From Spirochaetales bacterium (lineage in GTDB: Bacteria > Spirochaetota > GWE2-31-10), in assembly GCA_050872545.1 (NCBI GenBank), contig JBNMHA010000001.1:4047-68046 (forward strand): DNA of 64,000 bases. Reading direction: 5' to 3'. Numbering within the stretch: position 1 is the first letter of the stretch; every line of letters starts with the position of its first letter. The position numbers and the translations under genes were made by a program. Shown here piece by piece: positions 411-19,086 of the stretch. The notes under the pieces were generated by a model. The model saw nothing but the letters and a program-made list of their open reading frames with translations. It did no database searches and had not been told where the DNA came from.

Positions 411-575
411 CGTTAAAACTTAACACAAAGAGCGATTGCTGCACCGTTCGGCGTTGCCTGTTGTCTGTGGCTTCTGCCACACGAAAGTTCACCTTTGTTC
501 CCGGAAGTCAGCCCAATGTCTACCGAAAATCGGTTCATTTCACCTTTCAGCCAAGCCCTTGCACCTAATGCCCCG
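411..575 (-). repeat. Conserved 3'-end module, copy 1 of 4 (~165 nt, ~95% nucleotide identity), covering the last ~47 codons, the stop and the intergenic linker
   Basis: Direct comparison with the segments at 1327-1490, 2109-2275 and 3023-3190. Confidence 0.85.
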
Positions 576-1318
576 AACATGAACGATAAGCCAGTACTGC
601 TTACCAAACCGCCAAAAATAGAAAGTGCTCCGCCTAAAACTCGAATAGAATAAGTTGATGAATCTGATTTCCTTAGATTTTCTTCTATCACGCCTAAATG
701 TGTACCTGTAAATAATATTATTCCGCTTATAAACATAGGAACAAAACATCCTCCAACTACACCAAAAGAAATTGCTATTCTCTTGTATAATTTCAGGTGT
801 TTGTTTGAAAGATTGATAAAACGTTCTTTATCTTTAATTTCTCCATTTTGACAAACATCATCTCCTATAATGCTGAATATAATTCCACTCACCAAAAATA
901 CTTGAGAAATAAAAACGGGAAATAGTCCAAAGAAGAAAGTAAAAGGCAGCAAAATTGTACTCATATTCGGGGTTTCAACATCAAAGCATATCTTTTCCCA
1001 CCATTTTGGAATAACGTGATAAGCATATCCTACCGACGCAACTGTATAAGGAACAGACAATGCCAATGAAGTAAATCCTAAAAAACGAGTAGCATGACCT
1101 CTTATTATTTTATATTCTGGAGTTCTTCGCAATGCTCTGCGTTTATTTCGTGCATTACGTCTTTCTTGACGTTCCTGCTTTCTTATTTTTTTATAATCAT
1201 TTTCTATTGAAAAATCTGGTACTGCATTTTCTATTTCCGGCAAATTTTCTGTTTTTTCATTAGCGAAAAAACTTAATGTGCAAAAAAGTAAAACTGTTAT
1301 TAAAATCAATCGCTTCAT
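413..1318 (-). CDS. Polytopic membrane protein, paralog type A (copy 1): signal peptide, Arg/Lys-rich segment, 4-5 TM helices, conserved hydrophilic C-tail
   Basis: ORF of 301 aa. Its N-terminal 40 aa and C-terminal ~50 aa (...AWLKGEMNRFSVDIGLTSGNKGELSCGRSHRQQATPNGAAIALCVKF) are near-identical to the ORF at 2112..3014, while the core diverges. An 11-nt gap separates it from the upstream gene. Confidence 0.6.
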   Translation of the reverse strand: MKRLILITVLLFCTLSFFANEKTENLPEIENAVPDFSIENDYKKIRKQERQERRNARNKRRALRRTPEYKIIRGHATRFLGFTSLALSVPYTVASVGYAYHVIPKWWEKICFDVETPNMSTILLPFTFFFGLFPVFISQVFLVSGIIFSIIGDDVCQNGEIKDKERFINLSNKHLKLYKRIAISFGVVGGCFVPMFISGIILFTGTHLGVIEENLRKSDSSTYSIRVLGGALSIFGGLVSSTGLSFMFGALGARAWLKGEMNRFSVDIGLTSGNKGELSCGRSHRQQATPNGAAIALCVKF

Positions 1319-1326
1319 TTCTGTCT

Positions 1327-1490
1327 CCGTTAGAACTTAACGCAAAGAGCAATCGCTGCACCGTTCGGCGTTATTTGTTGTCTGCGGCTTCTGTCACACG
1401 AAAGTTCGCCTTTATTCCCGGAAGTCAACCCAATGTCTACTGAAAGTCGGTTCGTTTGCCCTTTCAGCCAAGCAGACATTGCGAGACTGG
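1327..1490 (-). repeat. Conserved 3'-end module, copy 2 of 4
   Basis: Nucleotide identity to the modules at 411-575, 2109-2275 and 3023-3190. Confidence 0.85.
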
Positions 1491-2100
1491 TTATCATAAT
1501 CGGAAGAGTAAACAAAGCTGAACTTCCAAATGAAATTAAAATAATTCCAAGAGTAAGCAAATCTTTGTTGTTTTCGTTAAAACAGGCTGCTCCAATTATA
1601 CCGCCGCCAGCTCCTGCAATTGTCAGCCCAACGCCTGTAACAATACCGAATACTAATGCTAATGTTTGCCAAAGTTTTATTCTTGATTTGTAATATTCTG
1701 CCAATTTTTCACTTGAACAATACTGCTGTCTTTTCTGATACAGTTTAACTCCTGTCGACAACATAATTATTCCCGGTATCATAAATCCTAAAGGAATAAC
1801 GCTGAAAAATACCGCATTAAAAAGCCCTAAAGGGAAAACTGTTAATGCAAAATTTATTGATAACGGAACACAGATTAATGACAAAATTCCCGAATGTGCC
1901 AAAAATATGCTTCCTATTGCTGTTCGCCGGATAGCTTTATATGTTTTCACTTCCATTGATTTTTCATCCAAGCGAAATTCCGGCTGTGTTTGCGTATCCT
2001 TTTCTATACAAAACGATGTTTTATCTTCTATTTCATTTGAATATATTTGAATAACCGAAAATATACTTATAAATATTGCTGCAACTAATAACTTGCTCAT
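1330..2100 (-). CDS. Polytopic membrane protein, paralog type B (copy 1)
   Basis: ORF of 256 aa. Its N-terminal ~45 aa (MSKLLVAAIFISIFSVIQIYSNEIEDKTSFCIEKDTQT...) and C-terminal ~60 aa are shared with the ORF at 3026..3799. The hydrophobic core is variable. Confidence 0.6.
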   Translation of the reverse strand: MSKLLVAAIFISIFSVIQIYSNEIEDKTSFCIEKDTQTQPEFRLDEKSMEVKTYKAIRRTAIGSIFLAHSGILSLICVPLSINFALTVFPLGLFNAVFFSVIPLGFMIPGIIMLSTGVKLYQKRQQYCSSEKLAEYYKSRIKLWQTLALVFGIVTGVGLTIAGAGGGIIGAACFNENNKDLLTLGIILISFGSSALFTLPIMITSLAMSAWLKGQTNRLSVDIGLTSGNKGELSCDRSRRQQITPNGAAIALCVKF

Positions 2101-2108
2101 TTCTGCCT

Positions 2109-2275
2109 CCGTTAAAACTTAACACAAAGAGCGATCGCTGCACCGTTCGGCGTTGCATGTTGTCTGCGGCTTCTGTCACACGAAAGTTCGCCTTTGTTCC
2201 CGTAAATCAGCCCAATGTCTACCGAAAGTCGGTTCATTTCACCTTTCAGCCAAGCCCTCGCACCTAATGCCCCGA
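2109..2275 (-). repeat. Conserved 3'-end module, copy 3 of 4
   Basis: Nucleotide identity to the other three copies. Confidence 0.85.
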
Positions 2276-3014
2276 ACATGAATGAGAATCCAAGTCCGGA
2301 AAATATTGTTCCTAAAGTTGTAAGAATTACACCGGATTGTAAGTTAAGAGTGTCTTGATATACTGTTCCACATTTTATTCCGCAAAGTATTCCAATTCCA
2401 CCAGCAAACATTGGGATAAATAATGTTCCAAATACAGCACCAACAATCGTAATGCTGCGAAATATTTTAGATAATTTGATTGAGACTATTTTAAATTGGG
2501 TTTCATCGATTTTTTCTATATTACGTTTTTTATAATATTTGCCGTATGCCAAACTTAAACCTATTCCCACACCGACAGAAGCAATTCCTAACAAAATAGG
2601 AACACTCAAGAAGATAAAAAACAAGGAATATGCAATCCCCCAACTCCAATCGTATGATGATGTGACATCAAATCCGGAATCAAAAAAAAATGCAGCAGCA
2701 GAAGCAAGCGGAATCATTACATGATAGATATAACCTGCTGTCAAAATAGTTGCCGGAACAGAAAAAACTGATGTTGTGACTGCACCAAAAACAATTAAAG
2801 AACTTTTTAACATTTTGTATTCTGCTGTTCTTTTTAAAGCTCTTTTTTCTCGTCGTCTCTCCAATTTTTCTTGCCGCCAAATTTCTCGCTGTTCATTTTC
2901 TATTGAAAAATCTGGTACTGCATTTTCTATTTCCGGCAACGCTTCAGCTTTTTCATTAGCGAAAAAACTTAGTGTGCAAAAAAGTAAAATTGTTATTAAA
3001 ATTAATCGTTTCAT
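2112..3014 (-). CDS. Polytopic membrane protein, paralog type A (copy 2)
   Basis: ORF of 300 aa, mosaic relative to 413..1318 (conserved termini, divergent core). Confidence 0.6.
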   Translation of the reverse strand: MKRLILITILLFCTLSFFANEKAEALPEIENAVPDFSIENEQREIWRQEKLERRREKRALKRTAEYKMLKSSLIVFGAVTTSVFSVPATILTAGYIYHVMIPLASAAAFFFDSGFDVTSSYDWSWGIAYSLFFIFLSVPILLGIASVGVGIGLSLAYGKYYKKRNIEKIDETQFKIVSIKLSKIFRSITIVGAVFGTLFIPMFAGGIGILCGIKCGTVYQDTLNLQSGVILTTLGTIFSGLGFSFMFGALGARAWLKGEMNRLSVDIGLIYGNKGELSCDRSRRQHATPNGAAIALCVKF

Positions 3015-3022
3015 TTCTGCCT

Positions 3023-3190
3023 CCGTTAAAACTTAACGCAAAGAGCGATTGCTGCACCGTTCGGCGTTGCCTGTTGTCTGTGGCTTCTGTCACACGAAAG
3101 TTCGCCTTTATTCCCAGAAGTCAGCCCAATGTCTACAAAAAACCGATTCATTTCACCTTTCAGCCAAGCAGACATTGCGAGACTGGTTAT
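3023..3190 (-). repeat. Conserved 3'-end module, copy 4 of 4
   Basis: Nucleotide identity to the other three copies. Confidence 0.85.
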
Positions 3191-3799
3191 CATAATCGGA
3201 AGAGTTGAAAACACACTTCCACTTCCCACGAATGTAAAAATATTACCTAAGATTCCGTAAGTCGGATTGCTCACTGAAGCAAATAAACTTACGCAAATTA
3301 ATCCTATTCCAGCCAATGCTATCCCTCCACTGCATGAACAAATAATTCCAGATACAATTGCTGATGTCTTTAGTTTCATCAATTTTTTTGTAATAAACGG
3401 CTGCAATTTTTCTAAATGCATATACGAATGCTTGTATTTTTTTATCCCAGAAGACAATAAAACACTGCCCGAGATTAATGTTCCTAATAACCCACCCACA
3501 GATAAACATGTTAATGTTGCACTTAAAACAATTGAACTTATTGAACGCAAATCTGTTAGTAAAAAAACATCAGTCACCGCACAAACATTGAATATTGTTG
3601 TTGCGCTACCTATTAGGATTGCTCCGGCATGAATTTTATTTATTTGGTTTACTAAAATTTTTTCATCCAAGCGAAATTCCGGATGAGTTTGTGTATCCTT
3701 TTCTATACAAAACGATGTTTTATCTTCTATTTCATTTGAATATATTTGAATAACCGAAAATATACTTATAAATATTGCTGCAACTAATAACTTGCTCAT
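3026..3799 (-). CDS. Polytopic membrane protein, paralog type B (copy 2)
   Basis: ORF of 257 aa, mosaic relative to 1330..2100. Confidence 0.6.
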   Translation of the reverse strand: MSKLLVAAIFISIFSVIQIYSNEIEDKTSFCIEKDTQTHPEFRLDEKILVNQINKIHAGAILIGSATTIFNVCAVTDVFLLTDLRSISSIVLSATLTCLSVGGLLGTLISGSVLLSSGIKKYKHSYMHLEKLQPFITKKLMKLKTSAIVSGIICSCSGGIALAGIGLICVSLFASVSNPTYGILGNIFTFVGSGSVFSTLPIMITSLAMSAWLKGEMNRFFVDIGLTSGNKGELSCDRSHRQQATPNGAAIALCVKF

Positions 3800-3811: not shown

Positions 3812-6800
3812 TTAATCAAAAAGATTAATTAATTTATCATTCATTAAATTAGAATCTATTTCATTCATAGCATCATTAAATACACAATAAATTCTAGTAG
3901 TTTGATGATCATAAAAACCATCCCATCCAAATGTAAAAGAATTTTCCAAAGGAATTGCTTTTTCGATTTGATACCAGTATTTCTCAATATTTTTGTCGTA
4001 ATAACTACGCCCTGCACCAGAAATAAATCCATCAATACTAATATTATTTGAGAAATCAACAAAGTGAGCTTCATCTCTGTAAAGAATATGGATTTCTTGA
4101 GAAATCTTACATGCTGCTAATCGAATTAACTGAACAGTTAAATATGTAAAATCTAAAAAAGTTACAGCTAGCGCAATCTGAAGTGCAATTTCCCAAGAAT
4201 AATTATAAGGCGGAATAATTCCATCATCAAAAGCCGGCGGAACAATTTCATCATCATTACTATAAAAATTGTACATTTTTACCTTTTTGTCGCCGCTGAG
4301 TGAATTAAATGTCTTATTCGGAAACTTAAAGCAATCTCTGTTAGATTTTTCGTTGTCTCCTATATCTGCTGTACTTGTTCCTACGCCGTTCAGTCCTACT
4401 ACAAATGGGATTTCACTCGCAAACTTTTCCATTTTGTCAGTTTGCAGATTGTGCATTGTGATGTTATTCACCGTTACACCGTGCGAATGCCCTATAAGTA
4501 TTATTTGAGACGCTCGGCAGTAAAAAAGGTTTGCCGCTACTCTGTCGTATATAAATTTTTCCAGTGCTTCGGCTGCCGCGTCACGGTATTCATAATTGTT
4601 TTCGCCCGACCAGTTGAAGTAATACGCTTTGTCATTTTGCGAATAATCCAAATTCAAAGCTTTTGCTACAGACGGCTGTTTAAAAAATTTTGCGGTATTT
4701 CCTTCACCGTTTTCGCAAAACATGTAATAGTTTCCATGCTGTTTAGCTTCAGTTACCCACTTATAAAAAAGCGTTCCATGTGTAAATATTACTATTCTGC
4801 TTGTAGGTACATCGTCAAGTTCCGATAAAAACTCCCGGCTGTCATCAGCTTCTTCCGTTACTTCAAACTTTACCACACTGTAATCTTTATACAATTTGTA
4901 CGTATAACTTGTAGTTACGCCTTGGCTGTCTTTTTGTGAACTGACATAAAGAGCCCAATATCCTTCGGTAGCTTTCCTTAAATCTTCCCTAAATGTGTCA
5001 TGCTCATAACCGCTTCCGTTGCTGGATGATGTATGTGATTTCATGTGAATGGAAACAGTTTTCACATATCTAAAATATGACGTACACAATTCATTGCCAT
5101 TTTTATCTAAAAGCGGAACACCTTTTACAAACTTTTTTGTAGGAATATACGGCTGTCCGTTTTTTTGCAGGTAGTATTCGGTATCGCCAATGCGAAAAAG
5201 ATTATTTGAATGAGGTTCACCGCTTTGGTAACAGGCATTCCGCACTGCATTTTCAGTCGCTGCAATTCTGAATTCGCCGACATTGTTTGAAAAAATTGCC
5301 GGAGTCTGCGGTACTTCTATTCTTACTTCCGGTTCATCCGCATCAATAAAATACATATCATTTTCAGGTTCTTTCTGTTCCACTCCGGCAAAGTCCGCCA
5401 GTTTCGCCACAATCTGCATTGCGGTTTCATTTGCCTTTATGTAATCATTATCCCGAAATGTTTTTTGCAGTTTTTTTGTGTCATCAAGCAAATCAATTTG
5501 TTTCCTTGTATCTTCATCCGCCGCCAAACTGACAAGGCGCGAAGTCAATTCCCACAACGTTATGCCCTCTGCACGCCGTACACTGCTTACGTTAGTTGAA
5601 ACTCCTATTAAATCAAAAGTTACTTCCTCATCACGGTCTGCATTTACAAGATACGGAAAACTCAATGTCATATTCGCACCGGCAGCCAATTCTACAGATG
5701 TAGATTTTAAATCCATTTGGACAAACGACGGAATATTTTCAAAACGCAGACATATCACATCAGTTTGCTTTGCATTATTTGTAACTGTTACTTTTATCTG
5801 GCTTTTTACACCTTTAGTGTAATAACCGACATTTGATTGAATCGAAAAATCGGCATCTACAACATTCAGTTTAATGACATGTTCACGTTTTACTTTAGGA
5901 TTGTTTGCCGAACTGCAAATTATCTTTACTTCAGTACTTTTCTTTTCAGTAAGCTTCACTGCAACTTCTATTGTTTCATGAGATTTTCCGTTTAATGCAG
6001 CTGTATTTTTAGATAACTTAACTTGGGCAAAATCAGAATCCGCACTGATAAAATATGAATCCTTAATATCCGTATTATTATGAATTACGATCGATGTTAA
6101 AATTTCTGCATTCAACGGCAATGACAATGAAGAATTTCCAGATATTGTGAAATCCGCATTGCTTGGATTAAACGTAATAGTAAAACTCTGCTTTTGCGCT
6201 GGATTGTTCACTGATGTCAAAGTAATTACTGCTTCTTTTGATGACGTTTCGTTTAGTTTCGCTTCCAATACAAGACTTTTGCTTTCACCGGATTTCACAG
6301 CAAATAAATTTGTCTCGGCTGATATTTCAAGACCAACGGATGGTTCTGTTTCTACTTTGTACGTATCATCAACATCACCATTATTTGTTATATTCAGTGT
6401 CTGCCGAGTACTTTCATTCACTGCTACAAACAACGCATTATTTCCAGATATTGTGAAATCCACGTTACTTGGATTAAACGTAATAATGAAACTTTGTTTC
6501 TGTGCCGGATTGTTCACTGATGTCAAAGTAATTACTGCTTCTTTTGATGATGTTTCGTTTAGTTTCGCTTCCAGCGCAAGACTTTTGCTTTCACCGGATT
6601 TCACGGCAAATAAATTTGTCTCGGCTAATATTTCAAGACCAGCGGATGATTCTGTTTCTACTTTGTACGTATCATCAACATCGCCGTTATTTGTTATGTT
6701 CAGTGTCTGCCGAGTACTTTCGTTCACCGCAACAAACAGCGCATTATTTCCAGATATTGTGAAATCCGCATTGCTCGGGTTAAACGTAATGGTAAAACTC

Positions 6801-8392
6801 TGCTTTTGCGCTGGATTGTTTACTGATGTCAAAGTAATTACTGCTTCTTTTGATGATGTTTCGTTTAGTTTCGCTTCCAGTGCAAGGCTTTTGCTTTCAC
6901 CGGATTTCACTGCAAATAAATTTGTCTCGGCTGATATTTCAAGACCGGCGGATGATTCTGTTTCTACTTTGTACGTATCATCAACATCGCCGTTATTTGT
7001 TATATTTAGCGTCTGCCGAGTACTTTCATTCACCGCAACAAACAACGCATTATTTCCAGATATTGAAAAATCCGCATTGCTTGGGTTAAACGTAATAATG
7101 AAACTCTGCTTTTGTGCCGGATTGTTTACAGATGTCAAAGTAATTACTGCTTCTTTTGATGATGTTTCGTTTAGTTTCGCTTCCAGTGCAAGACTTTTGC
7201 TTTCACCGGATTTCACTGCAAATAAATTTGTCTCGGCTAATATTTCAAGACCAACGGATGGTTCTGTTTCTACTTTGTACGTATCATCAACATCGCCGTT
7301 ATTTGTTATATTTAGCGTCTGCCGAGTGCTTTCATTCACCGCAACAAACAGCACATTATTTCCAGATATTGTGAAATCCACGTTACTTGGATTAAACGTA
7401 ATGGTAAAACTCTGCTTTTGCGCCGGATTGTTCACTGATGTCAAAGTAATTACTGCTTCTTTTGATGACGTTTCGTTTAGTTTCGCTTCCAGTGCAAGGC
7501 TTTTGCTTTCACCGGATTTCACGGCAAATAAATTTGTCTCGGCTGATATTTCAAGACCGACGGATGATTCTGTTTCAACTTTGTATGTATCATCAACATC
7601 GCCATTATTTGTTATGTTCAGTGTCTGCTGAGTACTTTCATTCACTGCTACAAACAGCGCATTATTTCCAGATATTGTGAAATCCGCGTTACTTGGATTA
7701 AACGTAATGGTAAAACTACAGTTTTCATTTGAATCATTTTCCGAAACTGCGGTAATATCGACTTTGCCGATTCTTGATTCCGGCAGCATAACGCTGTAAT
7801 CTACAGTTTCATACTCTCCGGAAGAGATTTTAACTTCAGTTTTTGTCAACGTTAAGCTAACATTTTCACATACCGCCGACAGCGCATATTTATCCGAAAA
7901 TTTTCCGGTATTTCTTACAATGAAATTTCCGGTCAATTGTTTATTCACCGGCAAATACAAAGATGAATCTCCGATTATCTCAACTTTTGCCGGAGTAGAA
8001 ATATCTACAGTCAACAAAATTTCTTTTTTATTCGGACGAAAAGATTCCCCGCCTACGACAAATATAGCTGCCTTGTAACTTCCTTTTTTCAAAGCTTTTA
8101 CGCAAAATATCGCTTCTTTCTTTTCACGTGCATTTACAGAAATTTTTTCTGCAAACTCCAAGTTGAAGCCTTCAGATTTTTCTGCTGACAAATAAAAATC
8201 CTGCGAATAATCCTCTTGATTTTCTATAAATACAGAAAGCAATTGCTCTGTTTCCAACGGCATTTTTTTAAGCAGCTGATTTTCCGACAGTGCAAATTTG
8301 TACTCTCTGTGAGTTTTCACTTCGTTCCATTGTTCCTGCGTACAGCTGAAAATAAACAGCAGCATTATCGACAACAAACTATAGTATTTCAT
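3812..8392 (-). CDS. Giant surface lipoprotein (1526 aa): lipobox, Ig/CARDB-like region, 5.3 near-identical 102-aa tandem repeats, C-terminal alpha/beta-hydrolase (lipase/esterase-like) domain
   Basis: Signal peptide with lipobox IFSC. The unit FTITFNPSN...AQKQS is repeated. The C-terminal region carries HG (FTHGT) and the nucleophile-elbow GHSHG motif typical of lipase/esterase folds. The gene overlaps its neighbours in the operon. Confidence 0.6.
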   Translation of the reverse strand: MKYYSLLSIMLLFIFSCTQEQWNEVKTHREYKFALSENQLLKKMPLETEQLLSVFIENQEDYSQDFYLSAEKSEGFNLEFAEKISVNAREKKEAIFCVKALKKGSYKAAIFVVGGESFRPNKKEILLTVDISTPAKVEIIGDSSLYLPVNKQLTGNFIVRNTGKFSDKYALSAVCENVSLTLTKTEVKISSGEYETVDYSVMLPESRIGKVDITAVSENDSNENCSFTITFNPSNADFTISGNNALFVAVNESTQQTLNITNNGDVDDTYKVETESSVGLEISAETNLFAVKSGESKSLALEAKLNETSSKEAVITLTSVNNPAQKQSFTITFNPSNVDFTISGNNVLFVAVNESTRQTLNITNNGDVDDTYKVETEPSVGLEILAETNLFAVKSGESKSLALEAKLNETSSKEAVITLTSVNNPAQKQSFIITFNPSNADFSISGNNALFVAVNESTRQTLNITNNGDVDDTYKVETESSAGLEISAETNLFAVKSGESKSLALEAKLNETSSKEAVITLTSVNNPAQKQSFTITFNPSNADFTISGNNALFVAVNESTRQTLNITNNGDVDDTYKVETESSAGLEILAETNLFAVKSGESKSLALEAKLNETSSKEAVITLTSVNNPAQKQSFIITFNPSNVDFTISGNNALFVAVNESTRQTLNITNNGDVDDTYKVETEPSVGLEISAETNLFAVKSGESKSLVLEAKLNETSSKEAVITLTSVNNPAQKQSFTITFNPSNADFTISGNSSLSLPLNAEILTSIVIHNNTDIKDSYFISADSDFAQVKLSKNTAALNGKSHETIEVAVKLTEKKSTEVKIICSSANNPKVKREHVIKLNVVDADFSIQSNVGYYTKGVKSQIKVTVTNNAKQTDVICLRFENIPSFVQMDLKSTSVELAAGANMTLSFPYLVNADRDEEVTFDLIGVSTNVSSVRRAEGITLWELTSRLVSLAADEDTRKQIDLLDDTKKLQKTFRDNDYIKANETAMQIVAKLADFAGVEQKEPENDMYFIDADEPEVRIEVPQTPAIFSNNVGEFRIAATENAVRNACYQSGEPHSNNLFRIGDTEYYLQKNGQPYIPTKKFVKGVPLLDKNGNELCTSYFRYVKTVSIHMKSHTSSSNGSGYEHDTFREDLRKATEGYWALYVSSQKDSQGVTTSYTYKLYKDYSVVKFEVTEEADDSREFLSELDDVPTSRIVIFTHGTLFYKWVTEAKQHGNYYMFCENGEGNTAKFFKQPSVAKALNLDYSQNDKAYYFNWSGENNYEYRDAAAEALEKFIYDRVAANLFYCRASQIILIGHSHGVTVNNITMHNLQTDKMEKFASEIPFVVGLNGVGTSTADIGDNEKSNRDCFKFPNKTFNSLSGDKKVKMYNFYSNDDEIVPPAFDDGIIPPYNYSWEIALQIALAVTFLDFTYLTVQLIRLAACKISQEIHILYRDEAHFVDFSNNISIDGFISGAGRSYYDKNIEKYWYQIEKAIPLENSFTFGWDGFYDHQTTRIYCVFNDAMNEIDSNLMNDKLINLFD
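6100..7717 (-). repeat. In-frame tandem repeat array inside the giant lipoprotein gene: 306-bp unit, about 5.3 copies, more than 95% identical
   Basis: Plus-strand shadow ORFs in 6147..7680 recur with a 306-nt period. The protein repeat 'ITFNPSN(A/V)DF(T/S)ISGNN' occurs six times. Confidence 0.9.
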
Positions 8393-8939
8393 TTTCCCTC
8401 CTTATTGTGAAATCAACAACCTTACACTTAATAAAAGGACGATAACTTATTGAACTGACATAACCATTGCCGAAATATGTACTGGCAGATAAACATTGCT
8501 GCACAACAAACGGATAAACAGATAAGGCTTTGTATATTCTGTTATAAAATGAACTTTCCGATTCAGTCACCGGTTCAAATTTTCTGCTAAATGTTATCAA
8601 TTGATTTTCCCGATAGAATATTTCAATTCCGTTGTCTTCACCGTAAACCATACACGGAAGCTTCTTAGGTGTTCTGTTCAATCGATACAAACTGCCGCTT
8701 TCAGAAATAAAAATAAGTTCTTGTTTTGAAAGTCCGTTTACATCGTAAATGTCATTAGCCTGATTTACTAACTTTACAGATGTCAAAGTTTCTTCATCGA
8801 CTTCACTTTCAATTTTTGCCGTATTGTCCACTTGTACTGTAACATTGTCTTCTTCCTGCAAAGTTTTATGGCTTTTCCAAGTACACCCGACATTGATGGC
8901 CACAAAAAGCAGCACAATTATTAACTTAGAAAAAATCAC
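8379..8939 (-). CDS. Hypothetical lipoprotein
   Basis: ORF of 186 aa with signal peptide and Cys (INVGC). Its start and stop overlap the flanking genes, consistent with operon coupling. Confidence 0.5.
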   Translation of the reverse strand: MIFSKLIIVLLFVAINVGCTWKSHKTLQEEDNVTVQVDNTAKIESEVDEETLTSVKLVNQANDIYDVNGLSKQELIFISESGSLYRLNRTPKKLPCMVYGEDNGIEIFYRENQLITFSRKFEPVTESESSFYNRIYKALSVYPFVVQQCLSASTYFGNGYVSSISYRPFIKCKVVDFTIRRENEIL

Positions 8940-10300
8940 ATTTCCTCCCCATAAAAAAAATTAATCTGATAAACAGCAAACTCGTATTTCGTATCGAGAG
9001 TTTTCTTCCTTGCTTCGATTATCCGTTCAATTGCATTTTTTATTTCGTATACTTCGATAAGCCCTTTCTGAAATGCCTCTGTAACTTCCCGATACTCTTC
9101 TTCCGACAATTTTTCATACGCTTCTAACGTTCTTATTTTTTTTCTGTAGTTTTGAATTTGTTTTGTATGCAAGGCATTTTTGTATTCTTTGATTTCTTGA
9201 TGTTCTTGAAGTTCATACTGAAGTTTCTTCTGCTCTTTCCTCAAGTCGCACAATCGCAGCTGTTGTTTGGAGAACGGTAAGGAAAAATTCAAAGGCATTT
9301 TTACAACGAAATTCAAGCTTCCGACTTTGTCATTCCAATATTTGCCGCTATTTTCAAACCAATCTCCTAACCAAGGATTGCGTGTATAACTGGGTGAAAA
9401 CAAGTAATTTACTTGAAGTGACGGAATGAAATGCGCAATTTCTTCCGCAATATTAAGTTTCAGTTCTTTTTGCCGCAACGAAAATTCTTCTTCACGATAT
9501 TCAGAACATGTTTTTTCATCAAAAAAACTCTCATTATGAAAATCTTCTAATTCGCCTGAAAAATAAATATTTTCTTCTCCAAGCAAAAAATTAAGGAACA
9601 TAAGACTTTTCTCATACAAGTTTTCTGTTTCATCAACTTCCTGTTGCAATTCATTTTTTTTCAATTCTGAATAAATAGTTCTGTATTTTTCCAAGCGATC
9701 ATCACATAAAGCCAGCATATTGCAAAATTGTTTTGTCAGTTCTGCATGTTCATTTGTCACTGCATTTTTTGCTTTATGATAAAAAACAGCAGCACAACCG
9801 GATAAAGCTGTTTTCCTAATTTCATTTTCAGCAAGTTCAAATGAAAGTTTGTTCTGCTTTAATAAATTTAACTTACTGCACAGTGACAAAATTGAAGCCA
9901 CGTTAAATTCCCAAACTGAATATGCTGTAAAATTTACACTCCAACGAGGTTTGGTCACATCAAAAGAGTTTGGGATAACTTCATCATATCCATTTGCAGT
10001 CGCACTTAATAAGTTAGGAAGCAATTCTTCGTATGTCGTTGTTCTGTCTTTATCACTCAAATTAGAACGAGAAAAGCTGCCGCATATTCCAAACTGCGGA
10101 ATAAACTCATCAAAACTTTCGATTATTTTCAGTTTTTTCTGCAATATGCTAATATTTTTTTGTTTAAGCGAAAGGCAATGTTTAACTGCCGTATCTGCGG
10201 CTTCTGCCGGAGTGATTAAAACATTTGCTCCGGCAAAAACTACAGAAAACAGAAATACTGAAATTGAAATAAGTTTTTGCATCGACAAAAATTCTTTCAT
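8936..10300 (-). CDS. Secreted coiled-coil protein, possibly a TolC-like outer-membrane channel
   Basis: ORF of 454 aa with a signal peptide. Long helical heptad-like segments alternate with short beta-like stretches, resembling the outer-membrane efflux protein architecture. The family assignment is uncertain. Confidence 0.35.
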   Translation of the reverse strand: MKEFLSMQKLISISVFLFSVVFAGANVLITPAEAADTAVKHCLSLKQKNISILQKKLKIIESFDEFIPQFGICGSFSRSNLSDKDRTTTYEELLPNLLSATANGYDEVIPNSFDVTKPRWSVNFTAYSVWEFNVASILSLCSKLNLLKQNKLSFELAENEIRKTALSGCAAVFYHKAKNAVTNEHAELTKQFCNMLALCDDRLEKYRTIYSELKKNELQQEVDETENLYEKSLMFLNFLLGEENIYFSGELEDFHNESFFDEKTCSEYREEEFSLRQKELKLNIAEEIAHFIPSLQVNYLFSPSYTRNPWLGDWFENSGKYWNDKVGSLNFVVKMPLNFSLPFSKQQLRLCDLRKEQKKLQYELQEHQEIKEYKNALHTKQIQNYRKKIRTLEAYEKLSEEEYREVTEAFQKGLIEVYEIKNAIERIIEARKKTLDTKYEFAVYQINFFYGEEM

Positions 10301-11320: not shown

Positions 11321-11701
11321 TTAACATGTTCGTTCTAAAACTAAAGATCTGGAGAAAATTAAGTATCCGCCGCTTAAAATACATGAAATTTCTCCGTCCG
11401 GAAGTCCTTTGCCCTCACCGTCAATACACTCAATTTCCAAAATTGTTCCATTAAAAATGCAGCCATCGCCTTCTTTACTTGTACCTGTTATTTTATATAC
11501 CTCAGAAAGTTTTTCACTTCCGTTATCCCAAGAATAAACGAAAGTATCATCTGCATAAAATTCTATAATATACGTAACTCCGCCGGATTCGCCGCTCCAT
11601 TTTCCCAATAAATCGCAACTAACGCCAGCACAAGTACACGATATTATCAAAAAAAACAAAGCAACCGGCAGCAATGCAAAAAATCCAATTTTACTTTTCA
11701 T
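11321..11701 (-). CDS. Small 'GKW-motif' lipoprotein (126 aa), last gene of operon 2
   Basis: Lipobox IISC followed by TCAGVSCDLLGKW. Its signal-peptide coding sequence and RBS are identical to those of 11711..12712. Confidence 0.6.
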   Translation of the reverse strand: MKSKIGFFALLPVALFFLIISCTCAGVSCDLLGKWSGESGGVTYIIEFYADDTFVYSWDNGSEKLSEVYKITGTSKEGDGCIFNGTILEIECIDGEGKGLPDGEISCILSGGYLIFSRSLVLERTC

Positions 11702-11710
11702 TGTCGTCTC

Positions 11711-12712
11711 CTAAATCAAAGAACATGTCAAATTTATCATGTTATATTTGTATACTTTATCTGTCCAAGCTTGAATTATGTAGATATTATCCCCATGCCG
11801 TGCGCTATCCGTATCTTTCGTTTTTATTGAAACTCTATCTTTTTCAACACCGCTTCTATCGAATGTTACAATCGATTTATTTGTTAAAAGAGTAATGAAA
11901 TCATCATTTTGATAGAGTGAATTCACACTAAAAAAGCCTCCTGTAGAAAAAACTTTTTCTACATTTAAAACATTATCAATTACCGAATAACGAAACAGAT
12001 CAACATCACGCCTTTCTCTTTCCCCATTATTTTCAGATACAACAAAAGTTCCGAGCAAATAAGGATCATAAAAATCTAAATACAAATAATCTTTATCAAA
12101 GCACGATAAATCAACAAATTTCTTTTGTGTAAGGTTATAAATATCGCTATACCCTAAACTATAAAGCAGAGAAACATAAACATTATTACCATTATGACCG
12201 GCAAATTTAGTCAAATACATTTCGCCTCCCGGCAGTGTCTCGTAGCGTATCTTTCTTGTTTGTGCATTATACACCGCATAAGTCACTGGAACATCTTTGA
12301 ATCCGGGAACACATGGTGCAATCCAAAGTTCATTATTTACATACGTAAAACATTCTGCAACTCTGGAAAGTTCAAAATGGAGTTCCTGTACTTTCCCGGT
12401 CAACGGATTCAAGCGGGCTATACGACCGTTTACAGTTAAAAAATACACGCTTTCATCAAAACTTTTATCATAAAAGAAATCACAAATTATACTTTCCGGG
12501 AATTTATACGTATATATCGCAGTTTCGGTTTTGGTATCGAAAGCAATTATTTTATGGCAATTGTCATCCCATCGGGATGTTAAGAAAATTGTATTTTCAT
12601 CAACATTTATTGGTTTGAAAGACGGAAACGGTGACAACGGTGCTTCACAAGACGTTATCAAAGAAAACAAAGCAAGCAGCAGCAATGCAAAAAATCCAAT
12701 TTTACTTTTCAT
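11711..12712 (-). CDS. Paralogous lipoprotein family member 1 (333 aa)
   Basis: Lipobox ITSC. The N-terminal ~180 aa and the C-terminal RHGDNIYIIQAWTDKVYKY.MINLTCSLI are shared with 12722..13735. A 9-nt intergenic gap precedes it. Confidence 0.6.
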   Translation of the reverse strand: MKSKIGFFALLLLALFSLITSCEAPLSPFPSFKPINVDENTIFLTSRWDDNCHKIIAFDTKTETAIYTYKFPESIICDFFYDKSFDESVYFLTVNGRIARLNPLTGKVQELHFELSRVAECFTYVNNELWIAPCVPGFKDVPVTYAVYNAQTRKIRYETLPGGEMYLTKFAGHNGNNVYVSLLYSLGYSDIYNLTQKKFVDLSCFDKDYLYLDFYDPYLLGTFVVSENNGERERRDVDLFRYSVIDNVLNVEKVFSTGGFFSVNSLYQNDDFITLLTNKSIVTFDRSGVEKDRVSIKTKDTDSARHGDNIYIIQAWTDKVYKYNMINLTCSLI

Positions 12713-12721
12713 TGTCGTCTC

Positions 12722-13735
12722 CTAAATCAAGGAACATGTCAAATTTATCATGTCATATTTGTATACTTTATCTGTCCAAGCTTGAATTATGTAGATATTA
12801 TCCCCATGCCGTGCGCTATACTCACCTTTTATGTCTATTGGAACTCTAGCTTTCTCTCTATAATTATTTTTTTTATCAAAAGCAATGAATGAATCTGTAG
12901 TCACATAAACTATAACATCATCATTTTGATAAAGTGAATTCATATTATAGAAACCATCAGCAAAAAAAAGTTTTTCTACACTCAACACATTATCAGTTAT
13001 CGAATAATGAAATACATCTGTATTACGCTGATTTTGCTGTTCATTCCAATGTACACAAACCATATAAGGGTCATAAAATTCTATACAAAAATAGCATTTA
13101 TTTTCCTTATCCAAACAGGATATATCCACACCTTTTTTCTGTGTAATATTGTAAATCTCTGCCGGCTGCTGTGAAATATAAAATGAAATATATGTATTTC
13201 CATTTTCATATCCGGCATATTCTTCACAAAAGATTACCCCACTCGGCAACGTTTCGTAGCGTACCTTTCCTGTTTGGGCATTATACACCGCATAAGTTAC
13301 CGGAACATCTTTGAATCCGGGAACACACGGTGCAATCCAAAGTTCATTATTTATATACGTAAAACGTTCTGCAACTCTGGAAAGTTCAAAATGAAGCTCT
13401 TGTACTTTCCCGGTTAACGGATTCAATCGGGCTATACGACCATTGAGAGTCAGAAAATACATGCTTTCATCAAAACTTTTGTCATAAAAGAAATCATAAA
13501 TTATACTTTCCGGGAATTTATACGTATATATCGCAGTTTCGGTTTTGGTATCAAAAGCAATTATTTTATGGCAATTGTCATCCCATCGGGATGTTAAGAA
13601 AATTGTATTTTCATCAACATTTATTGGTTTGAAAGACGGAAACGGTGACAACGGTGCTTCACAAGACGTTATCAAAGAAAATAAAACTAACATCGGCAAT
13701 AACAACAACACAAGAAAATTTATTCCGCTTTTCAT
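12722..13735 (-). CDS. Paralogous lipoprotein family member 2 (337 aa)
   Basis: Mosaic relative to 11711..12712. The RBS AAGGAG lies upstream. Confidence 0.6.
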   Translation of the reverse strand: MKSGINFLVLLLLPMLVLFSLITSCEAPLSPFPSFKPINVDENTIFLTSRWDDNCHKIIAFDTKTETAIYTYKFPESIIYDFFYDKSFDESMYFLTLNGRIARLNPLTGKVQELHFELSRVAERFTYINNELWIAPCVPGFKDVPVTYAVYNAQTGKVRYETLPSGVIFCEEYAGYENGNTYISFYISQQPAEIYNITQKKGVDISCLDKENKCYFCIEFYDPYMVCVHWNEQQNQRNTDVFHYSITDNVLSVEKLFFADGFYNMNSLYQNDDVIVYVTTDSFIAFDKKNNYREKARVPIDIKGEYSARHGDNIYIIQAWTDKVYKYDMINLTCSLI

Positions 13736-13926: not shown

Positions 13927-14949
13927 CTATTCAATAACTTTCATTGAAAAATCTTCCAAATTGATTTTATAAATACTGTGAGTATCACCTTTTACGCAGT
14001 AAAAGAATCCGTCACGAACATAATTGGAAAAAGAAGATTGCATATTTAAAGAATTTGATTTTTTAAGTCTATAATTATCTTTAGCATAAACCAGAAAACT
14101 TCTTTTTTCAGGATCTATACCATAAACAAATAGATATTTTTCTGTTTCATATACTCCCTGAACTCTAATTTTTTTAATATTAAGAAGTTTATTTACTTCT
14201 AATTTTGGCACTATTGATTTTATTTTATATATAAATACTTCATCTATACTGTCTGCTACTAAAAACCCATTGTAATAATCGTACCAAGAACATTTAACAG
14301 AATTATCCAATGACGATATGTCAAGTTTTTTCTTATCTGTATAATTATATATTTCAGCTTCATCCATATATAATGGCAAGAAAACTTTATCATCCATTTT
14401 AAAAGGTGTTGCATTTAACAAAATTCCTTCCGGCAATTCTTCATAACGATACGAATCGGTAGCCGGTGTATATACAAAATATTTTACAGGGGTATTTTTA
14501 AAACCCGGATAATTCGGACTTACCCACACTTCGTTATTGAAAATTACCAAATCTTCCGGTTCTCTGATTAATTCTATATTTTTAATTTCACTCATTTTCC
14601 CGGAAGTTACATCCAGTTTTGCTGTTCGCCCATCCCCAAATATTACATATATATTGTTTTTATCTGTTTCATAATCATAGGCTACTTCATAAAGACTTAA
14701 ATTTTTATCGAATACATATCTGTAAAGAAGCTTTTGTTTATCTGAATCAAATACAATTATTTCATTTAATTCACTGCCATCTTTTGCGGTAGAGCCATCA
14801 CAATTATCAAAAACAAAAATATTTTCATGCATTTCTATAGATACATCAAACGTCGGCAAAGGAACATCTTTTTGGTTTTCCTCCATATTGCAGCCTACAC
14901 AACTTGTAAATAGACAGAATAAAGCTATGATTTTATATATAAATTTCAC
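13927..14949 (-). CDS. Paralogous lipoprotein family member 3 (about 341 aa from a GTG start)
   Basis: The ORF track starts at 14979, but AAGGAG followed by 6 nt and GTG at 14949 gives the typical signal peptide MKFIYKIIALFCLFTSC. The C-terminus ...KINLEDFSMKVIE is shared with the two upstream paralogs. Confidence 0.5.
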   Translation of the reverse strand: MKFIYKIIALFCLFTSCVGCNMEENQKDVPLPTFDVSIEMHENIFVFDNCDGSTAKDGSELNEIIVFDSDKQKLLYRYVFDKNLSLYEVAYDYETDKNNIYVIFGDGRTAKLDVTSGKMSEIKNIELIREPEDLVIFNNEVWVSPNYPGFKNTPVKYFVYTPATDSYRYEELPEGILLNATPFKMDDKVFLPLYMDEAEIYNYTDKKKLDISSLDNSVKCSWYDYYNGFLVADSIDEVFIYKIKSIVPKLEVNKLLNIKKIRVQGVYETEKYLFVYGIDPEKRSFLVYAKDNYRLKKSNSLNMQSSFSNYVRDGFFYCVKGDTHSIYKINLEDFSMKVIE

Positions 14950-14970
14950 TGTTTGTCTCCTTAGTGATAA

Positions 14971-14995
14971 CTCCCCCATAAAACAAGGGGGGGAG
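14971..14995. other. Intergenic GC hairpin with a homopolymer (C5, 9-nt loop, G7) immediately upstream of the RBS of the 13927 gene
   Basis: CTCCCCC-ATAAAACAA-GGGGGGGAG followed by TTTTATTT. A paralogous copy at 16148-16170 has G6. Confidence 0.7.
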
Positions 14996-15036
14996 TTTTA
15001 TTTAATGACTGCTTGATACACAATTTGAAAATTACA

Positions 15037-16128
15037 CTATTCAATAACTTTCATTGAAAAATCTTCCAAATTGATTTTTAAAACTGCCGGATTTTCTTCA
15101 CCTACAGAGTTTATTGTATAAACATATTTTCCAACTTGGTAAAATTGCTCCAAACTTATAGTCGGATTATATTTTTTCACATCTGGATAATGCTCCCTAA
15201 AAGAATCCAATATTTCGTTTGTTTCAGGATCATACTTTAGAATATCTTTATAAGCTTCGCCTGTATCTAAATACAAATAATCACCATACTCAAGATCTGC
15301 ATAACATACGACATCGAGTGTTTGCAGCGGCTTAGAAACTTTAAACTTTGATTCTCCAAATTCTTCAAGTTTGTACAACGTAGTTTTTGTTTCGTACATC
15401 ATTTTCTCTTCATTTCTTATTTTTTTTCTTTTTCCTACAATGCCTTTTTTGAAAAAAGAAACAAAATGAAAAGCCGTAACTGAATCATCGATTAAATCAG
15501 GAAAATAATCATTCAAATCGATATTCATATCTTTTTGCTTTGTCCAGTTATAAATATCTCTTTGTGTATATGCATTATAAACTGAATCCGCAGCTACAAC
15601 ATATATATCACCGTCATACTTAAAGGGAGAACCTAGAAATTTATACGGTTCTGAAGTAAGCTCTTCGGTTTGGTAATAATAACGATATATTTTATCATTA
15701 TGATTATCCATAAAAAGCAAGTTGTCACTTTCGAATTCAAACATAGAAACCGTTCCGCCCAATGTTGGTTCTCCAAAATATTTTATTTTAGCAGTAGCCG
15801 GATCAAACTCAGACAAACGTGCTAATTTTCTTGAATCCCTATGTCCATGATATACAAAATAGCATTTCTTCTGCTCCTTCACGTATTTAAAATCATGGGT
15901 AATGTTTTTATCTGGATCTAAATGATACCGCTTTACGATTCTATCTGTAGATAAATCAACTGCTAAAAATTGTCTGTTTTTTCCGCAATCAAAAAAGAAA
16001 TATATTGAATCAGTAACTTCTATAGGCTTAAATTCAGGAAATGAACCATCTATTTCTTCTGTACAGCAAGAAAATAAAACTAACATCGGCAATAGCAGCA
16101 ACACAGGAAATTTTATTCCGCCTTTCAT
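15037..16128 (-). CDS. Paralogous lipoprotein family member 4 (363 aa)
   Basis: Signal peptide ending LFSCC. It is about 75% identical to 16212..17309 and shares the C-terminus NPAVLKINLEDFSMKVIE. Confidence 0.6.
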   Translation of the reverse strand: MKGGIKFPVLLLLPMLVLFSCCTEEIDGSFPEFKPIEVTDSIYFFFDCGKNRQFLAVDLSTDRIVKRYHLDPDKNITHDFKYVKEQKKCYFVYHGHRDSRKLARLSEFDPATAKIKYFGEPTLGGTVSMFEFESDNLLFMDNHNDKIYRYYYQTEELTSEPYKFLGSPFKYDGDIYVVAADSVYNAYTQRDIYNWTKQKDMNIDLNDYFPDLIDDSVTAFHFVSFFKKGIVGKRKKIRNEEKMMYETKTTLYKLEEFGESKFKVSKPLQTLDVVCYADLEYGDYLYLDTGEAYKDILKYDPETNEILDSFREHYPDVKKYNPTISLEQFYQVGKYVYTINSVGEENPAVLKINLEDFSMKVIE

Positions 16129-16147
16129 CGATTCTCCTTAGTAATAA

Positions 16148-16170
16148 CTCCCCCATAAAACAGGGGGGAG
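16148..16170. other. Intergenic GC hairpin with a homopolymer (C5, 8-nt loop, G6) upstream of the RBS of the 15037 gene
   Basis: CTCCCCC-ATAAAACA-GGGGGGAG followed by TTTTATTT. Confidence 0.7.
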
Positions 16171-16211
16171 TTTTATTTAATGACTGTTTGATACACAATT
16201 TGAAAATTACG

Positions 16212-17309
16212 CTATTCAATAACTTTCATTGAAAAATCTTCCAAATTGATTTTTAAAACTGCCGGATTTTCTTCACCTACAGAGTTTATTGTATAAACAT
16301 ATTTTCCAACTTGGTGAAATTGCTCCCAACTTATAGGAGGGTTATATTTTTTCACATCTGGATAATGCTCCCTAAAAGAATCCAATATTTCGTTTGTTTC
16401 AGGATCATACTTTAGAATATCTTCATAAGCTTCACCGGTATTTAAATACAAGTAATTCCCATATTCAAAATTTTTATAACATCCTACATCAAGCACCTTC
16501 AACGGCTCGGAAACTTTAAACTTTGATTCTCCAAATTCTTCAAGTCTGTATAACGTAGTTTCAACGTCATAACGCATACTCTCATTATTTCTTGTTTTTT
16601 TCCTTTTCCCAACAATGCCTTTTTTGAAAAAAGAAATAAAATGAAAAGTTTCATTTGGAATATAATCATCAAGTAAATCAGGAAAATAATCATTTAAATC
16701 GATATTCATATCTTTTTGCTTTGTCCAGTTATAAATATCTCTTTGTGTATCTGAATCATAAACTGAATCTGCACCAACAACATATATATCACCGTCATAC
16801 TTGAAAGGAGACCCTAAATATTTATATGTTTCTGTAGTAAATTCACCTGTTTCATAATAATAACGATATATTTTATTCATATAATTATCCATAAAAAGCA
16901 AATAATCATCTTCAAGATTTAATGGAAAAACAAAACCTCCTAAAATCGGAACTTCAAAATATTTTATCTTTGCTGTAATTGGATCAAACTCTGCCAGCTT
17001 ATTCTTCCCCATTGCATCTCTATGTCCTAAATATGTGAAATAACATTTCTTTTGCTCCTTTATATAAATGAAATTATCAACAAGATTTTTATCCGGACTC
17101 AACTTGTATCTTTTAACAACTTTATCTGTAGATAAATCAACTGCTAAGAACTGTTTGTTTTTTTCACAATCAAAAAAGAAATACATTGAATCAGTAACTT
17201 CTATAGGCTTAAATTCAGGAAATGAGCCATCTATTTCTTCTGTACAGCAAGAAAATAAAACTAACATCGGCAATAGCAGCAACACATGAAAATTTATTCC
17301 GCTTTTCAT
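16212..17309 (-). CDS. Paralogous lipoprotein family member 5 (365 aa from the second ATG)
   Basis: The RBS GGAGAC lies inside the first ATG codons, which favours the start MKSGINFHVLLLL at 17309. It overlaps the upstream gene's stop. Confidence 0.55.
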   Translation of the reverse strand: MKSGINFHVLLLLPMLVLFSCCTEEIDGSFPEFKPIEVTDSMYFFFDCEKNKQFLAVDLSTDKVVKRYKLSPDKNLVDNFIYIKEQKKCYFTYLGHRDAMGKNKLAEFDPITAKIKYFEVPILGGFVFPLNLEDDYLLFMDNYMNKIYRYYYETGEFTTETYKYLGSPFKYDGDIYVVGADSVYDSDTQRDIYNWTKQKDMNIDLNDYFPDLLDDYIPNETFHFISFFKKGIVGKRKKTRNNESMRYDVETTLYRLEEFGESKFKVSEPLKVLDVGCYKNFEYGNYLYLNTGEAYEDILKYDPETNEILDSFREHYPDVKKYNPPISWEQFHQVGKYVYTINSVGEENPAVLKINLEDFSMKVIE

Positions 17310-18940: not shown

Positions 18941-18977
18941 AATTAATATCCTTGTAATAAGATTTCACGAAATTGTA

Positions 18978-19009
18978 AGATTAGCCAGCTATTGCAATCT
19001 TATTGTCAA
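18978..19009 (-). promoter_or_regulatory. Candidate sigma70-like promoter for operon 2 (copy of the 10707-10738 element)
   Basis: TTGACA (19009-19004), 20-nt spacer, TAATCT (18983-18978), inside the duplicated module. Confidence 0.25.
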
Positions 19010-19041
19010 GTTTTATCGTTCATGAAAAGCGATTTTGCAAG

Positions 19042-19086
19042 AAAAAAAACTTCCCGGAGGTCAAGAAAATTCTCCGGGAAGTTTTT
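19042..19086. terminator. Bidirectional intrinsic terminator (copy of 10771-10815)
   Basis: A8, CTTCCCGGAG, loop, CTCCGGGAAG, T5. It would terminate the mrp-plus-repeat transcript. Confidence 0.65.

Follow-up and report, generated by a model that had tools for sequence, protein, structure and literature searches.

The DNA analysed here is a 64,000-nucleotide stretch (hereafter the window) of a Spirochaetales genome, taken from the 98-kb contig JBNMHA010000001.1 of a metagenome assembly. On its minus strand lies a giant gene, which is followed by an array of genes for membrane proteins. The open reading frame (ORF) extends over 3812-8392, begins with ATG and encodes 1,526 residues, of which the N-terminus, MKYYSLLSIMLLFIFSC, has a lipobox-like ...FSC. 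Because of this lipobox and the Ser16-Cys17 pair, which is invariant across 16/16 aligned family members, the protein is most likely a lipoprotein. Its C-terminal part resembles an alpha/beta-hydrolase with a hypervariable hydrophobic segment, and this segment and the next gene (or gene pair) are swapped between strains as one recombination cassette. In our best reading, the locus would be a previously undescribed, lineage-restricted variant of the polymorphic effector/immunity theme. The giant gene and its parts, including the immunoglobulin-like (Ig-like) domains, are arranged as follows.

3812..8392, minus strand: giant lipoprotein gene, with a lipobox, nine Ig-like domains, a conserved middle region and a divergent alpha/beta-hydrolase bearing a hypervariable hydrophobic cap or tail.
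8342..8392, minus strand: predicted signal peptide and lipobox (residues 1-17, ...LLFIFSC), with Ser16-Cys17 invariant in 16 family members.
7703..8341, minus strand: strain-specific N-terminal module (residues 18-230) with two diverged Ig-like domains (residues ~33-230), missing in the sibling strain L020 and in all 17 relatives.
6173..7702, minus strand: five 102-residue Ig-like units (residues 231-740), from Tandem Repeats Finder and Pfam.
5558..6172, minus strand: two diverged Ig-like domains (residues 741-945), common to the whole family.
4847..5557, minus strand: conserved helical linker and beta-rich region (residues 946-1182), with many invariant columns, no family match and low AlphaFold confidence.
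4226..4846, minus strand: alpha/beta-hydrolase core (residues 1183-1389), with FTHGT, WSGENN..R..AA..L, GHSHG and NDDEIVPPAFDD (Asp1381/Asp1389).
4772-4786, minus strand: FTHGT (residues 1203-1207).
4478-4492, minus strand: GHSHG (residues 1301-1305), with the Ser1303 codon at 4484-4486.
3923..4225, minus strand: hypervariable hydrophobic cap/tail segment (residues 1390-1490), of type A in the window strain.
3815..3922, minus strand: conserved C-terminal segment containing the final helix and His1496 (DHQTTR), the candidate catalytic His; His1496 and Gln1497 are kept in all full-length members.

The array genes lie directly downstream.

3026..3799, minus strand: first array gene, type M2, 257 residues, candidate cognate partner or immunity protein of tail A; locus L014 has the same pairing.
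2112..3014, minus strand: array gene of type M1, 300 residues, non-cognate.
1330..2100, minus strand: array gene of type M0, 256 residues, first neighbour of tail C in other loci.
413..1318, minus strand: array gene of type M3, 301 residues, first neighbour of tail B1, including in the sibling strain L020, and the end of the array.

An initial annotation, made from the letters of the window alone, had described the ORF, the 306-bp repeats, the FTHGT and GHSHG motifs and an array of membrane proteins after the ORF. All of these, and a lipobox, are present, the array comprising four paralogous genes. The hydrolase-like part, for which ~450 residues had been given, is shorter, at ~340 residues (1183-1526), and is preceded by a conserved region of ~240 residues.

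Direct sequence and profile searches of the C-terminal 581 and 329 residues against Pfam, NCBIfam and the PDB gave Cutinase as the best match, with an E-value of 0.15. An exhaustive HMMER profile search of 1.84 billion representatives reached only two proteins beyond the family, P0018 (E 2e-12) and P0019 (E 9e-4), and both retain H-G-T, W-x-G-x-N, R-x-x-A-A-x-x-L and S-H-G. The relatives of P0019 have the consensus ...VHGT...F-WSG-N...R..AA..L...IGHSHGGN...GDEA...HS, and 21 of 30 members of that family match the Pfam alpha/beta-hydrolase models Abhydrolase_6 or Hydrolase_4. When the giant-protein family was compared with the P0019 family by hhalign, the match had 97.7% probability (E 1.9e-12) over 69 columns, which form the strand-helix-strand-elbow segment. 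RIVIFTHGT, with the oxyanion HG, and the elbow residue Ser1303 are invariant in 16/16 members. P0018, P0019 and the P0019 family all keep the HGT, and the elbow varies to GYSHG in one member (Ser kept), SQSHG in P0018 and AHSHG in P0019. The hydrolase assignment suggested in the initial annotation is thus supported by the invariant elbow Ser and by the hhalign match. Judged by these motifs and profiles, the C-terminal domain is a very divergent alpha/beta-hydrolase.

Following the nucleophile come two candidate acids, Asp1381 and Asp1389, both conserved, and then His1496, which lies in D/E-H-Q-x-T-R and which every full-length member keeps. Ser1303 in GHSHG, Asp1381 (or Asp1389) and His1496 are therefore predicted to be the catalytic residues, and the domain is probably catalytically active. 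AlphaFold2 models were of low confidence. The mean predicted local distance difference test (pLDDT) value was 36 for residues 946-1526 (581 residues, 11 sequences) and 55 for residues 1183-1526 (344 residues, 41 sequences including the P0019 family), and only the oxyanion-to-elbow segment reached 60-80. A Foldseek search of the PDB found no significant match (best E 0.012, template-modelling score at most 0.25); the top matches, although non-significant, were almost all carboxylesterases, acyl-protein thioesterases or lysophospholipases. A literature search on the GHSHG motif returned nothing relevant. P0018 (707 residues, elbow SQSHG; L022:1330-4149) is the only distant homologue of the whole C-terminal region. 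It belongs to a different organism, and is preceded there by an unrelated PEP-CTERM-type protein (...VPEPGASILFGTGLLALAGCRRRR).

A large word-indexed protein search found 17 relatives of the giant protein, 59-77% identical, 784-910 residues long and free of Pfam domains, which come from metagenomes or Spirochaetota metagenome-assembled genomes (MAGs). This count is a lower bound, because the giant protein and its 1,037-residue sibling were returned neither by this search nor by an exact look-up, although their contigs and neighbour genes are in the collection. The family is encoded by 3 of ~185,000 species representatives, all of them gut Spirochaetota MAGs. Its members share the same order of elements, namely a lipobox, two Ig-like domains, the conserved helical and beta-rich region, the hydrolase core and the hypervariable hydrophobic segment. 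This last segment, 100-160 residues in length, separates the Asp motif (NDDEIVPPAFDD) from the conserved His motif, and some members have in addition an optional 31-residue hydrophobic insert after ...GTST. Both variable positions are those at which alpha/beta-hydrolases and lipases carry cap or lid elements. Each tail type has at least one hydrophobic segment of transmembrane grade, with three or four in type B. Identity between tails of unlike type is 17-37%; the bodies, 72-98% identical, are mosaic. For example, the L006 and L009 proteins have bodies 98% identical and tails 22% identical. The bodies remain 92-99% identical up to abrupt breakpoints at residues ~1330-1340 or ~1376-1392.

Tails and array proteins from 20 loci were clustered, the array proteins by their variable middle only, because the shared termini merged the types in whole-length similarity. 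At least eight tail types were distinguished, and in all 20 loci the tail type matched the first downstream gene one-to-one.

Tail A (window, L014): first downstream gene M2.
Tail B1 (L001-3, L019): first downstream gene M3.
Tail B2 (L006): M6+M7 pair first downstream.
Tail B3 (L017/18): first downstream gene M5.
Tail C (L004, L005, L010): first downstream gene M0.
Tail C' (L013): first downstream gene a variant of M0.
Tail D (L009, L015, L016): split pair s145+s161 first downstream.
Tail E (L011/12): first downstream gene M4.

In Mantel tests, the tail correlated with the first neighbour (r = 0.87, p about 5e-5), and the conserved body did not (r = 0.03, p = 0.37). The second and later array genes were not linked to the tail type. 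Each locus also held 1-8 non-cognate (orphan) partner genes, without orphan toxin fragments. The rest of the enzyme recombines independently of the cassette.

Each array protein starts with a signal peptide and closes with a conserved C-terminus of ~45 residues; the middle is variable and contains 2-4 hydrophobic helices. The C-terminal sequence, ...NRLSVDIG.TSG..GEL...PNG.A.AL.VKF, ends in Phe; it is identical among the paralogues of one genome and different between genomes. The 3' end of an array gene, the intergenic spacer and the next signal peptide form a repeat of 160-300 bp with 88-94% identity. The homogenised ends point to concerted evolution or to a recombination substrate. Among 5.8 billion proteins the array family formed 48 clusters, all from metagenomes or Spirochaetota MAGs and none annotated. 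Every spirochaete locus with downstream sequence had the hydrolase gene followed by 1-9 array genes, in at least three chromosomal contexts, and the two families, equally narrow in distribution, were found together in all of the spirochaete loci examined. M6 falls outside the array family. With its signal peptide, beta-rich body of 294 residues and lack of transmembrane helices (L006:5896-6780, L011:9853-10737), it is possibly an outer-membrane protein. It always accompanies the family member M7, as a two-gene cassette after tail B2. At several loci (L001:17241-19696, L003, L014:4253-6495) the array is followed by a conserved 555-residue lipoprotein without a Pfam match and by a protein of ~225 residues.

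The comparison with a sibling strain bears directly on the cassette. L020 is a close strain, 96-97% identical to the window in the flanks, and L021 is an independent assembly with an identical protein. The L020 orthologue has 1,037 residues, with one full unit and 0.3 of a unit instead of 5.2. Its N-terminus corresponds to the first 55 codons of a separate 186-residue ORF of the window (53/55 residues; L020:10558-10724). The body is ~96% identical at the DNA level up to residue 1340, after which L020 has the 31-residue insert and a B-type tail. The segments that differ are given below.

3815..4370, minus strand: segment wholly replaced in the sibling strain, residue 1341 to the end, from the blastn map.
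7718..8772, minus strand: 1,055-bp segment without counterpart in the sibling strain, from the blastn map.
8379..8939, minus strand: ORF186, a 186-residue lipoprotein, with microhomology ACTTTGACATCTGTAAA at codons 51-56.

The first gene downstream of the L020 hydrolase is M3, 96% identical to the fourth array gene of the window. L020 was found after the rule linking tail and neighbour had been set, and its combination of a B-type tail with M3 as the next gene confirms that rule prospectively. The array order is permuted, being M2-M1-M0-M3 in the window and M3-M0-M1-M5like-M2-M1'-M4like in L020, and therefore each sibling strain holds the cognate type of the other as an extra gene.

At the 5' end, a microhomology of 17-18 nt, ACTTTGACATC[A/T]GTAAA, which encodes TLTSV, occurs in ORF186 and at the end of every unit. 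Recombination at this TLTSV-coding sequence accounts for the 5' difference between the window and L020. As read from the junction, the documented change in length is one 2.3-kb recombination at the 17-18-nt microhomology, which also took out the 5' end of the gene. It was either a deletion in L020 or an insertion in the window strain. ORF186 and the L020 hydrolase N-terminus thus represent a gene split or fusion polymorphism at the same TLTSV-coding microhomology. A less likely cause of the form with 1.3 units is the collapse of extra units in short-read assemblies. Against such a collapse, the junction is a precise microhomology of 17-18 nt, shorter than assembler k-mers, and two independent assemblies from different samples give identical 1,037-residue proteins.

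Within the stalk, Tandem Repeats Finder reported a single array at 6134-7717 with a period of 306, 5.2 copies, 92% matches, no indels and a score of 2685. All Pfam matches to the units exceeded the gathering score: fn3_6 with 57.7 bits (cut-off 26.4; E 1.4e-15), FixG_C with 49.3 (25.6; 6.8e-13), PulA_N1 with 41.3 (27) and HYDIN/VesB Ig-like with 30.9 (25.5). The five full units have pairwise DNA identities of 91.2-95.1%, i.e. 15-27 differences per 306 nt, and their longest identical in-register tracts are 32-67 nt. Third codon positions account for 30 of the 41 variable nucleotide columns among the units, so the copies are old enough to have diverged under purifying selection. By these measures the repeat units are Ig-like domains, present as diverged copies under such selection. 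Four further Ig-like domains, two before the units and two after them, are 23-30% identical to the units. The amplified 102-residue unit and residues 18-230 are missing in all 17 database relatives, so that the giant form is an exception within its family.

The initial annotation had given 5.3 copies at more than 95% DNA identity and had proposed slipped-strand or unequal recombination with variable length. The tandem repeats were confirmed (5.2 copies), the identity was lower than stated (91-95%), and variability between strains was borne out by the ~1.3 units of the sibling strain, whose flanks are 96% identical, against 5.2 here. Polymerase slippage is an unlikely mechanism for units of 306 bp with 5-9% divergence and identical tracts of only 32-67 nt. 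Such units would be poor substrates for slippage; homologous recombination between them could occur.

The genes from 10669 to 413 form a tightly packed string, with overlaps or gaps of 11-12 bp, that follows a strong terminator (11269-11238). Apart from this one signal, scans for promoters and terminators did no better than chance. The order along the string is a lipocalin-like lipoprotein, a TolC-like outer-membrane protein, ORF186, the giant gene and the four array genes.

8936..10300, minus strand: TolC-like outer-membrane efflux protein gene (Pfam OEP, E 4.2e-08), which overlaps the start of ORF186.

The TolC-like gene lies upstream of the hydrolase only in the window, L020 and L021, and no obvious adaptor or pump gene is adjacent. 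ORFans make up nearly all of the island that lies between an Mrp/NUBPL-type ParA gene (19672-20892) and the purQ flank, and a short hydrolase stands directly after the ParA gene in L001 and L013. A 171-bp tandem repeat (19309-19666; 2.1 copies, 85% matches) lies inside an intergenic element of ~550 bp (18927-19475), which occurs twice in the L020 island (4028-4573, 8292-8836) with 89-93% identity. In 14997-17309 (minus strand) two paralogues, 15037-16128 and 16212-17321, have no Pfam match and both match one L020 gene (79-1210), with nucleotide identities of 98% and 84%, respectively. Their sequences mark them as a tandem duplication in the window strain. An ORF of similar size, 13927-14979 (350 residues, no Pfam match), adjoins the pair. 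Closer to the string, 11321-13735 (minus strand) encodes paralogous lipoproteins of 333 and 337 residues, with ~81% nucleotide identity and a weak beta-propeller-like match. An adjoining 126-residue ORF shares their signal peptide, and none of the three has a family assignment.

Taken together, these features suggest a polymorphic hydrolase effector that is restricted to one lineage and borne on a lipoprotein, with polytopic membrane proteins as its cognate immunity proteins or partners. We put the probability of this reading at roughly 0.5, an estimate that also covers the product being a lipid-anchored envelope or surface protein. The initial annotation had noted a resemblance to effector/immunity modules. 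This likeness is much stronger than could be seen at that stage, given the one-to-one co-variation of tail type and first downstream gene. The stalk of nine Ig-like domains carries the conserved middle region and the divergent serine alpha/beta-hydrolase, and five of the stalk domains are copies of a recently amplified 102-residue unit, whose number differs between strains. In the proposed mechanism, the variable hydrophobic segment would act as a lid or membrane-binding element for which the cognate polytopic membrane protein is the specific binding partner. From the cell surface or from vesicles the hydrolase would attack membrane lipids, and the cognate membrane protein would neutralise it in the producer. 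Protection against the alleles of neighbouring strains would come from the further paralogues of the array.

Several observations weigh against this proposal. The 20 loci, of which only ~13 are independent, all come from metagenome assemblies, and the organisms are uncultured. Pfam, NCBIfam, PADLOC and PHROG yielded neither a secretion or delivery apparatus nor a known toxin or immunity domain, and the empty PADLOC and PHROGs scans set the locus apart from known defence and phage modules. Apart from the lipoprotein signal peptide, no trafficking module (T5SS, T6SS, T7SS (types V, VI and VII secretion systems), PrsW and the like) is present in the protein or in the genes directly next to it. 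The variable part is an insertion inside the enzyme and not a separable toxin domain. Silent or orphan fragments of tails or bodies were not found in any locus or in the whole window, and P0018 has no downstream array in its own context (L022). AlphaFold confidence was low (pLDDT 36 and 55), which leaves the triad geometry and the lid position of the variable segment as predictions. We know of no lipase effectors with polytopic immunity proteins; the known ones use soluble or lipoprotein ones. Finally, the co-variation of adjacent DNA could arise from linkage alone.

Among the alternatives, the one that survives best, though we consider it rather unlikely, is an enzyme-partner module without antagonism. 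Here the hydrolase would dock through its hydrophobic segment onto the cognate membrane protein, as part of a complex that remodels envelope lipids or lipoproteins, or of a surface structure. Pressure from phages or host immunity would drive the diversification, and the array would hold alternative or silent partner cassettes shuffled via the conserved gene ends. Co-variation requires only a specific interaction, not toxicity. The homogenised 5' and 3' ends of the array genes would serve as recombination substrates, consistent with the permuted order in the siblings. A variable-length Ig-like stalk is typical of exposed surface proteins, and the family and defence scans gave neither a delivery system nor a toxin domain. 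On the other hand, the array genes are all intact, tightly packed ORFs with their own signal peptides rather than promoterless fragments. The mutual carriage of cognate types by the siblings is predicted by immunity repertoires and is not required by antigenic variation. The catalytic motifs are also strictly conserved, with variation only in the lid-like segment.

It is less probable still that the protein is an ordinary secreted or surface esterase or lipase used in nutrition, on dietary or host esters, with the membrane proteins unrelated and associated only through linkage in recombination tracts. Co-transfer is expected for adjacent sequences, the enzyme core is conserved, and alpha/beta-hydrolases with Ig-like stalks are common in gut bacteria. 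However, linkage of this kind does not readily give a one-to-one association over at least eight types and three contexts, with divergence graded in parallel (r = 0.87), while the upstream body, equally adjacent, is uncorrelated (r = 0.03). The exchanged unit stops after exactly one gene or a fixed pair, and the hydrolase and array families, both extremely narrow in distribution, are always found together. A protein that is mainly an adhesin or pseudo-enzyme, with a catalytically dead hydrolase-like domain as a binding module and repeats that tune its reach, would fit the nine Ig-like domains, the low-confidence structure prediction and the lack of a direct match to any hydrolase model, but is very improbable given that the oxyanion HG, elbow Ser, acidic residue and His are kept across members 57-80% identical and also in P0018 and P0019, and that the GYSHG member alters the elbow yet keeps the Ser.

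Returning to the effector/immunity reading, a more specific form of it is put forward tentatively, and falls somewhat short of even odds. The locus may be an unrecognised interbacterial antagonism system of gut Spirochaetota that works without a dedicated secretion machine, through a lipoprotein lipase, borne on the surface or on vesicles, with a swappable lid-like specificity segment. A co-inherited polytopic immunity protein would neutralise that segment, and strains would build up arrays of immunity paralogues against the alleles of one another. Spirochaetota, abundant members of ruminant and non-industrialised human gut communities, have to our knowledge essentially no described interbacterial antagonism systems. 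As a candidate the locus is compact and testable, with two orphan families and the clear cognate pairs A/M2, B1/M3, C/M0 and D/s145+s161. If the lid is indeed recognised by a membrane immunity protein, this would be a new architecture in the polymorphic toxin repertoire. Placing the variable element in a lid within the enzyme, and not in a toxin domain of its own, would give such toxins a new design principle, and the matched lid/inhibitor pairs would form a natural set for studies of specificity. Even if the system is non-antagonistic, it is a clean case of modular recombination: in this uncultured lineage the stalk length, the enzyme body, the lid and the partner are all exchanged independently of one another.

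Compared with known proteins, the giant protein shares with generic alpha/beta-hydrolases (Abhydrolase_6, Hydrolase_4, PGAP1-like; the P0019 family) the series HGT ... F.WSG.N ... R..AA..L ... GHSHG with acid and His downstream, and in some hydrolases of the P0019-family type hydrophobic insertions likewise occur beyond the nucleophile helix, after the next strand. In contrast, only ~70 columns align significantly, the giant-protein family falls below every Pfam threshold, and its 240-residue preceding region and hypervariable lid are unique. Surface proteins with variable tandem Ig-like repeats resemble it in their near-identical units and in a copy number that differs between strains (5.2 and 1.3). 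Here, however, the units are 5-9% diverged, mostly by synonymous changes, and the sole documented change is a microhomology-mediated event of 2.3 kb rather than a simple gain or loss of units.

Lipase effectors of the T6SS (Tle/Tli), which are lipases or phospholipases with arrays of immunity genes, have a GxSxG serine alpha/beta-hydrolase as their antibacterial activity and adjacent, often multi-copy immunity genes, and resemble the window protein with its hydrolase domain and its array of candidate immunity genes. The window protein had no match to the Tle family, and similarity to Tle3, below threshold, was seen only in P0018 and one P0019-family member. VgrG, Hcp and PAAR were not found among the adjacent genes scanned, the remainder of the window being left unscanned. 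The same likeness extends to the T7SS lipase toxins of S. aureus (PMC13560087); the adjacent genes here provide neither a T6SS nor a T7SS context.

The SitA toxins of myxobacteria have nuclease-type C-terminal domains and depend on TraA/TraB. Like the window protein, they are polymorphic lipoproteins whose cognate gene lies downstream; as toxins they act between close relatives and are delivered, with SitI as the cognate protein, by outer-membrane exchange (PMC5562445, PMC8546572). The present family differs in having no sequence similarity to them and polytopic membrane proteins as partners, and there is no sign of TraAB here, although no search aimed at it was made. Against membrane-active effectors, immunity nearly always comes from polytopic membrane proteins, sometimes from a pair (PMC12744356). 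EsxX with its ExiCD pair (PMC12744356) is similar in setting a hydrophobic toxin segment against multi-spanning proteins, and the immunity pair parallels s145+s161 and M6+M7; toxins of this type are small, helical pore-formers secreted by the T7SS, whereas the hydrophobic segment here is embedded in an enzyme.

The closest likeness is to the polymorphic toxin systems, which are defined by the recombination of variable C-termini (PMC3482391). We favour an effector/immunity function because the conserved body, the recombining tail and the co-varying downstream gene match that definition. As in contact-dependent inhibition (CDI; CdiA-CT/CdiI) and Rhs systems (PMC3482391), the conserved N-terminal body is joined to a recombining variable C-terminal part, the co-varying cognate gene lies directly downstream, non-cognate genes follow in tandem and polymorphism occurs within the species. 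The lipoprotein signal is the only trafficking feature here, and there are no orphan toxin tips. Moreover, the variable part is not one of several unrelated toxin domains but a hydrophobic insertion between the catalytic motifs of one enzyme.

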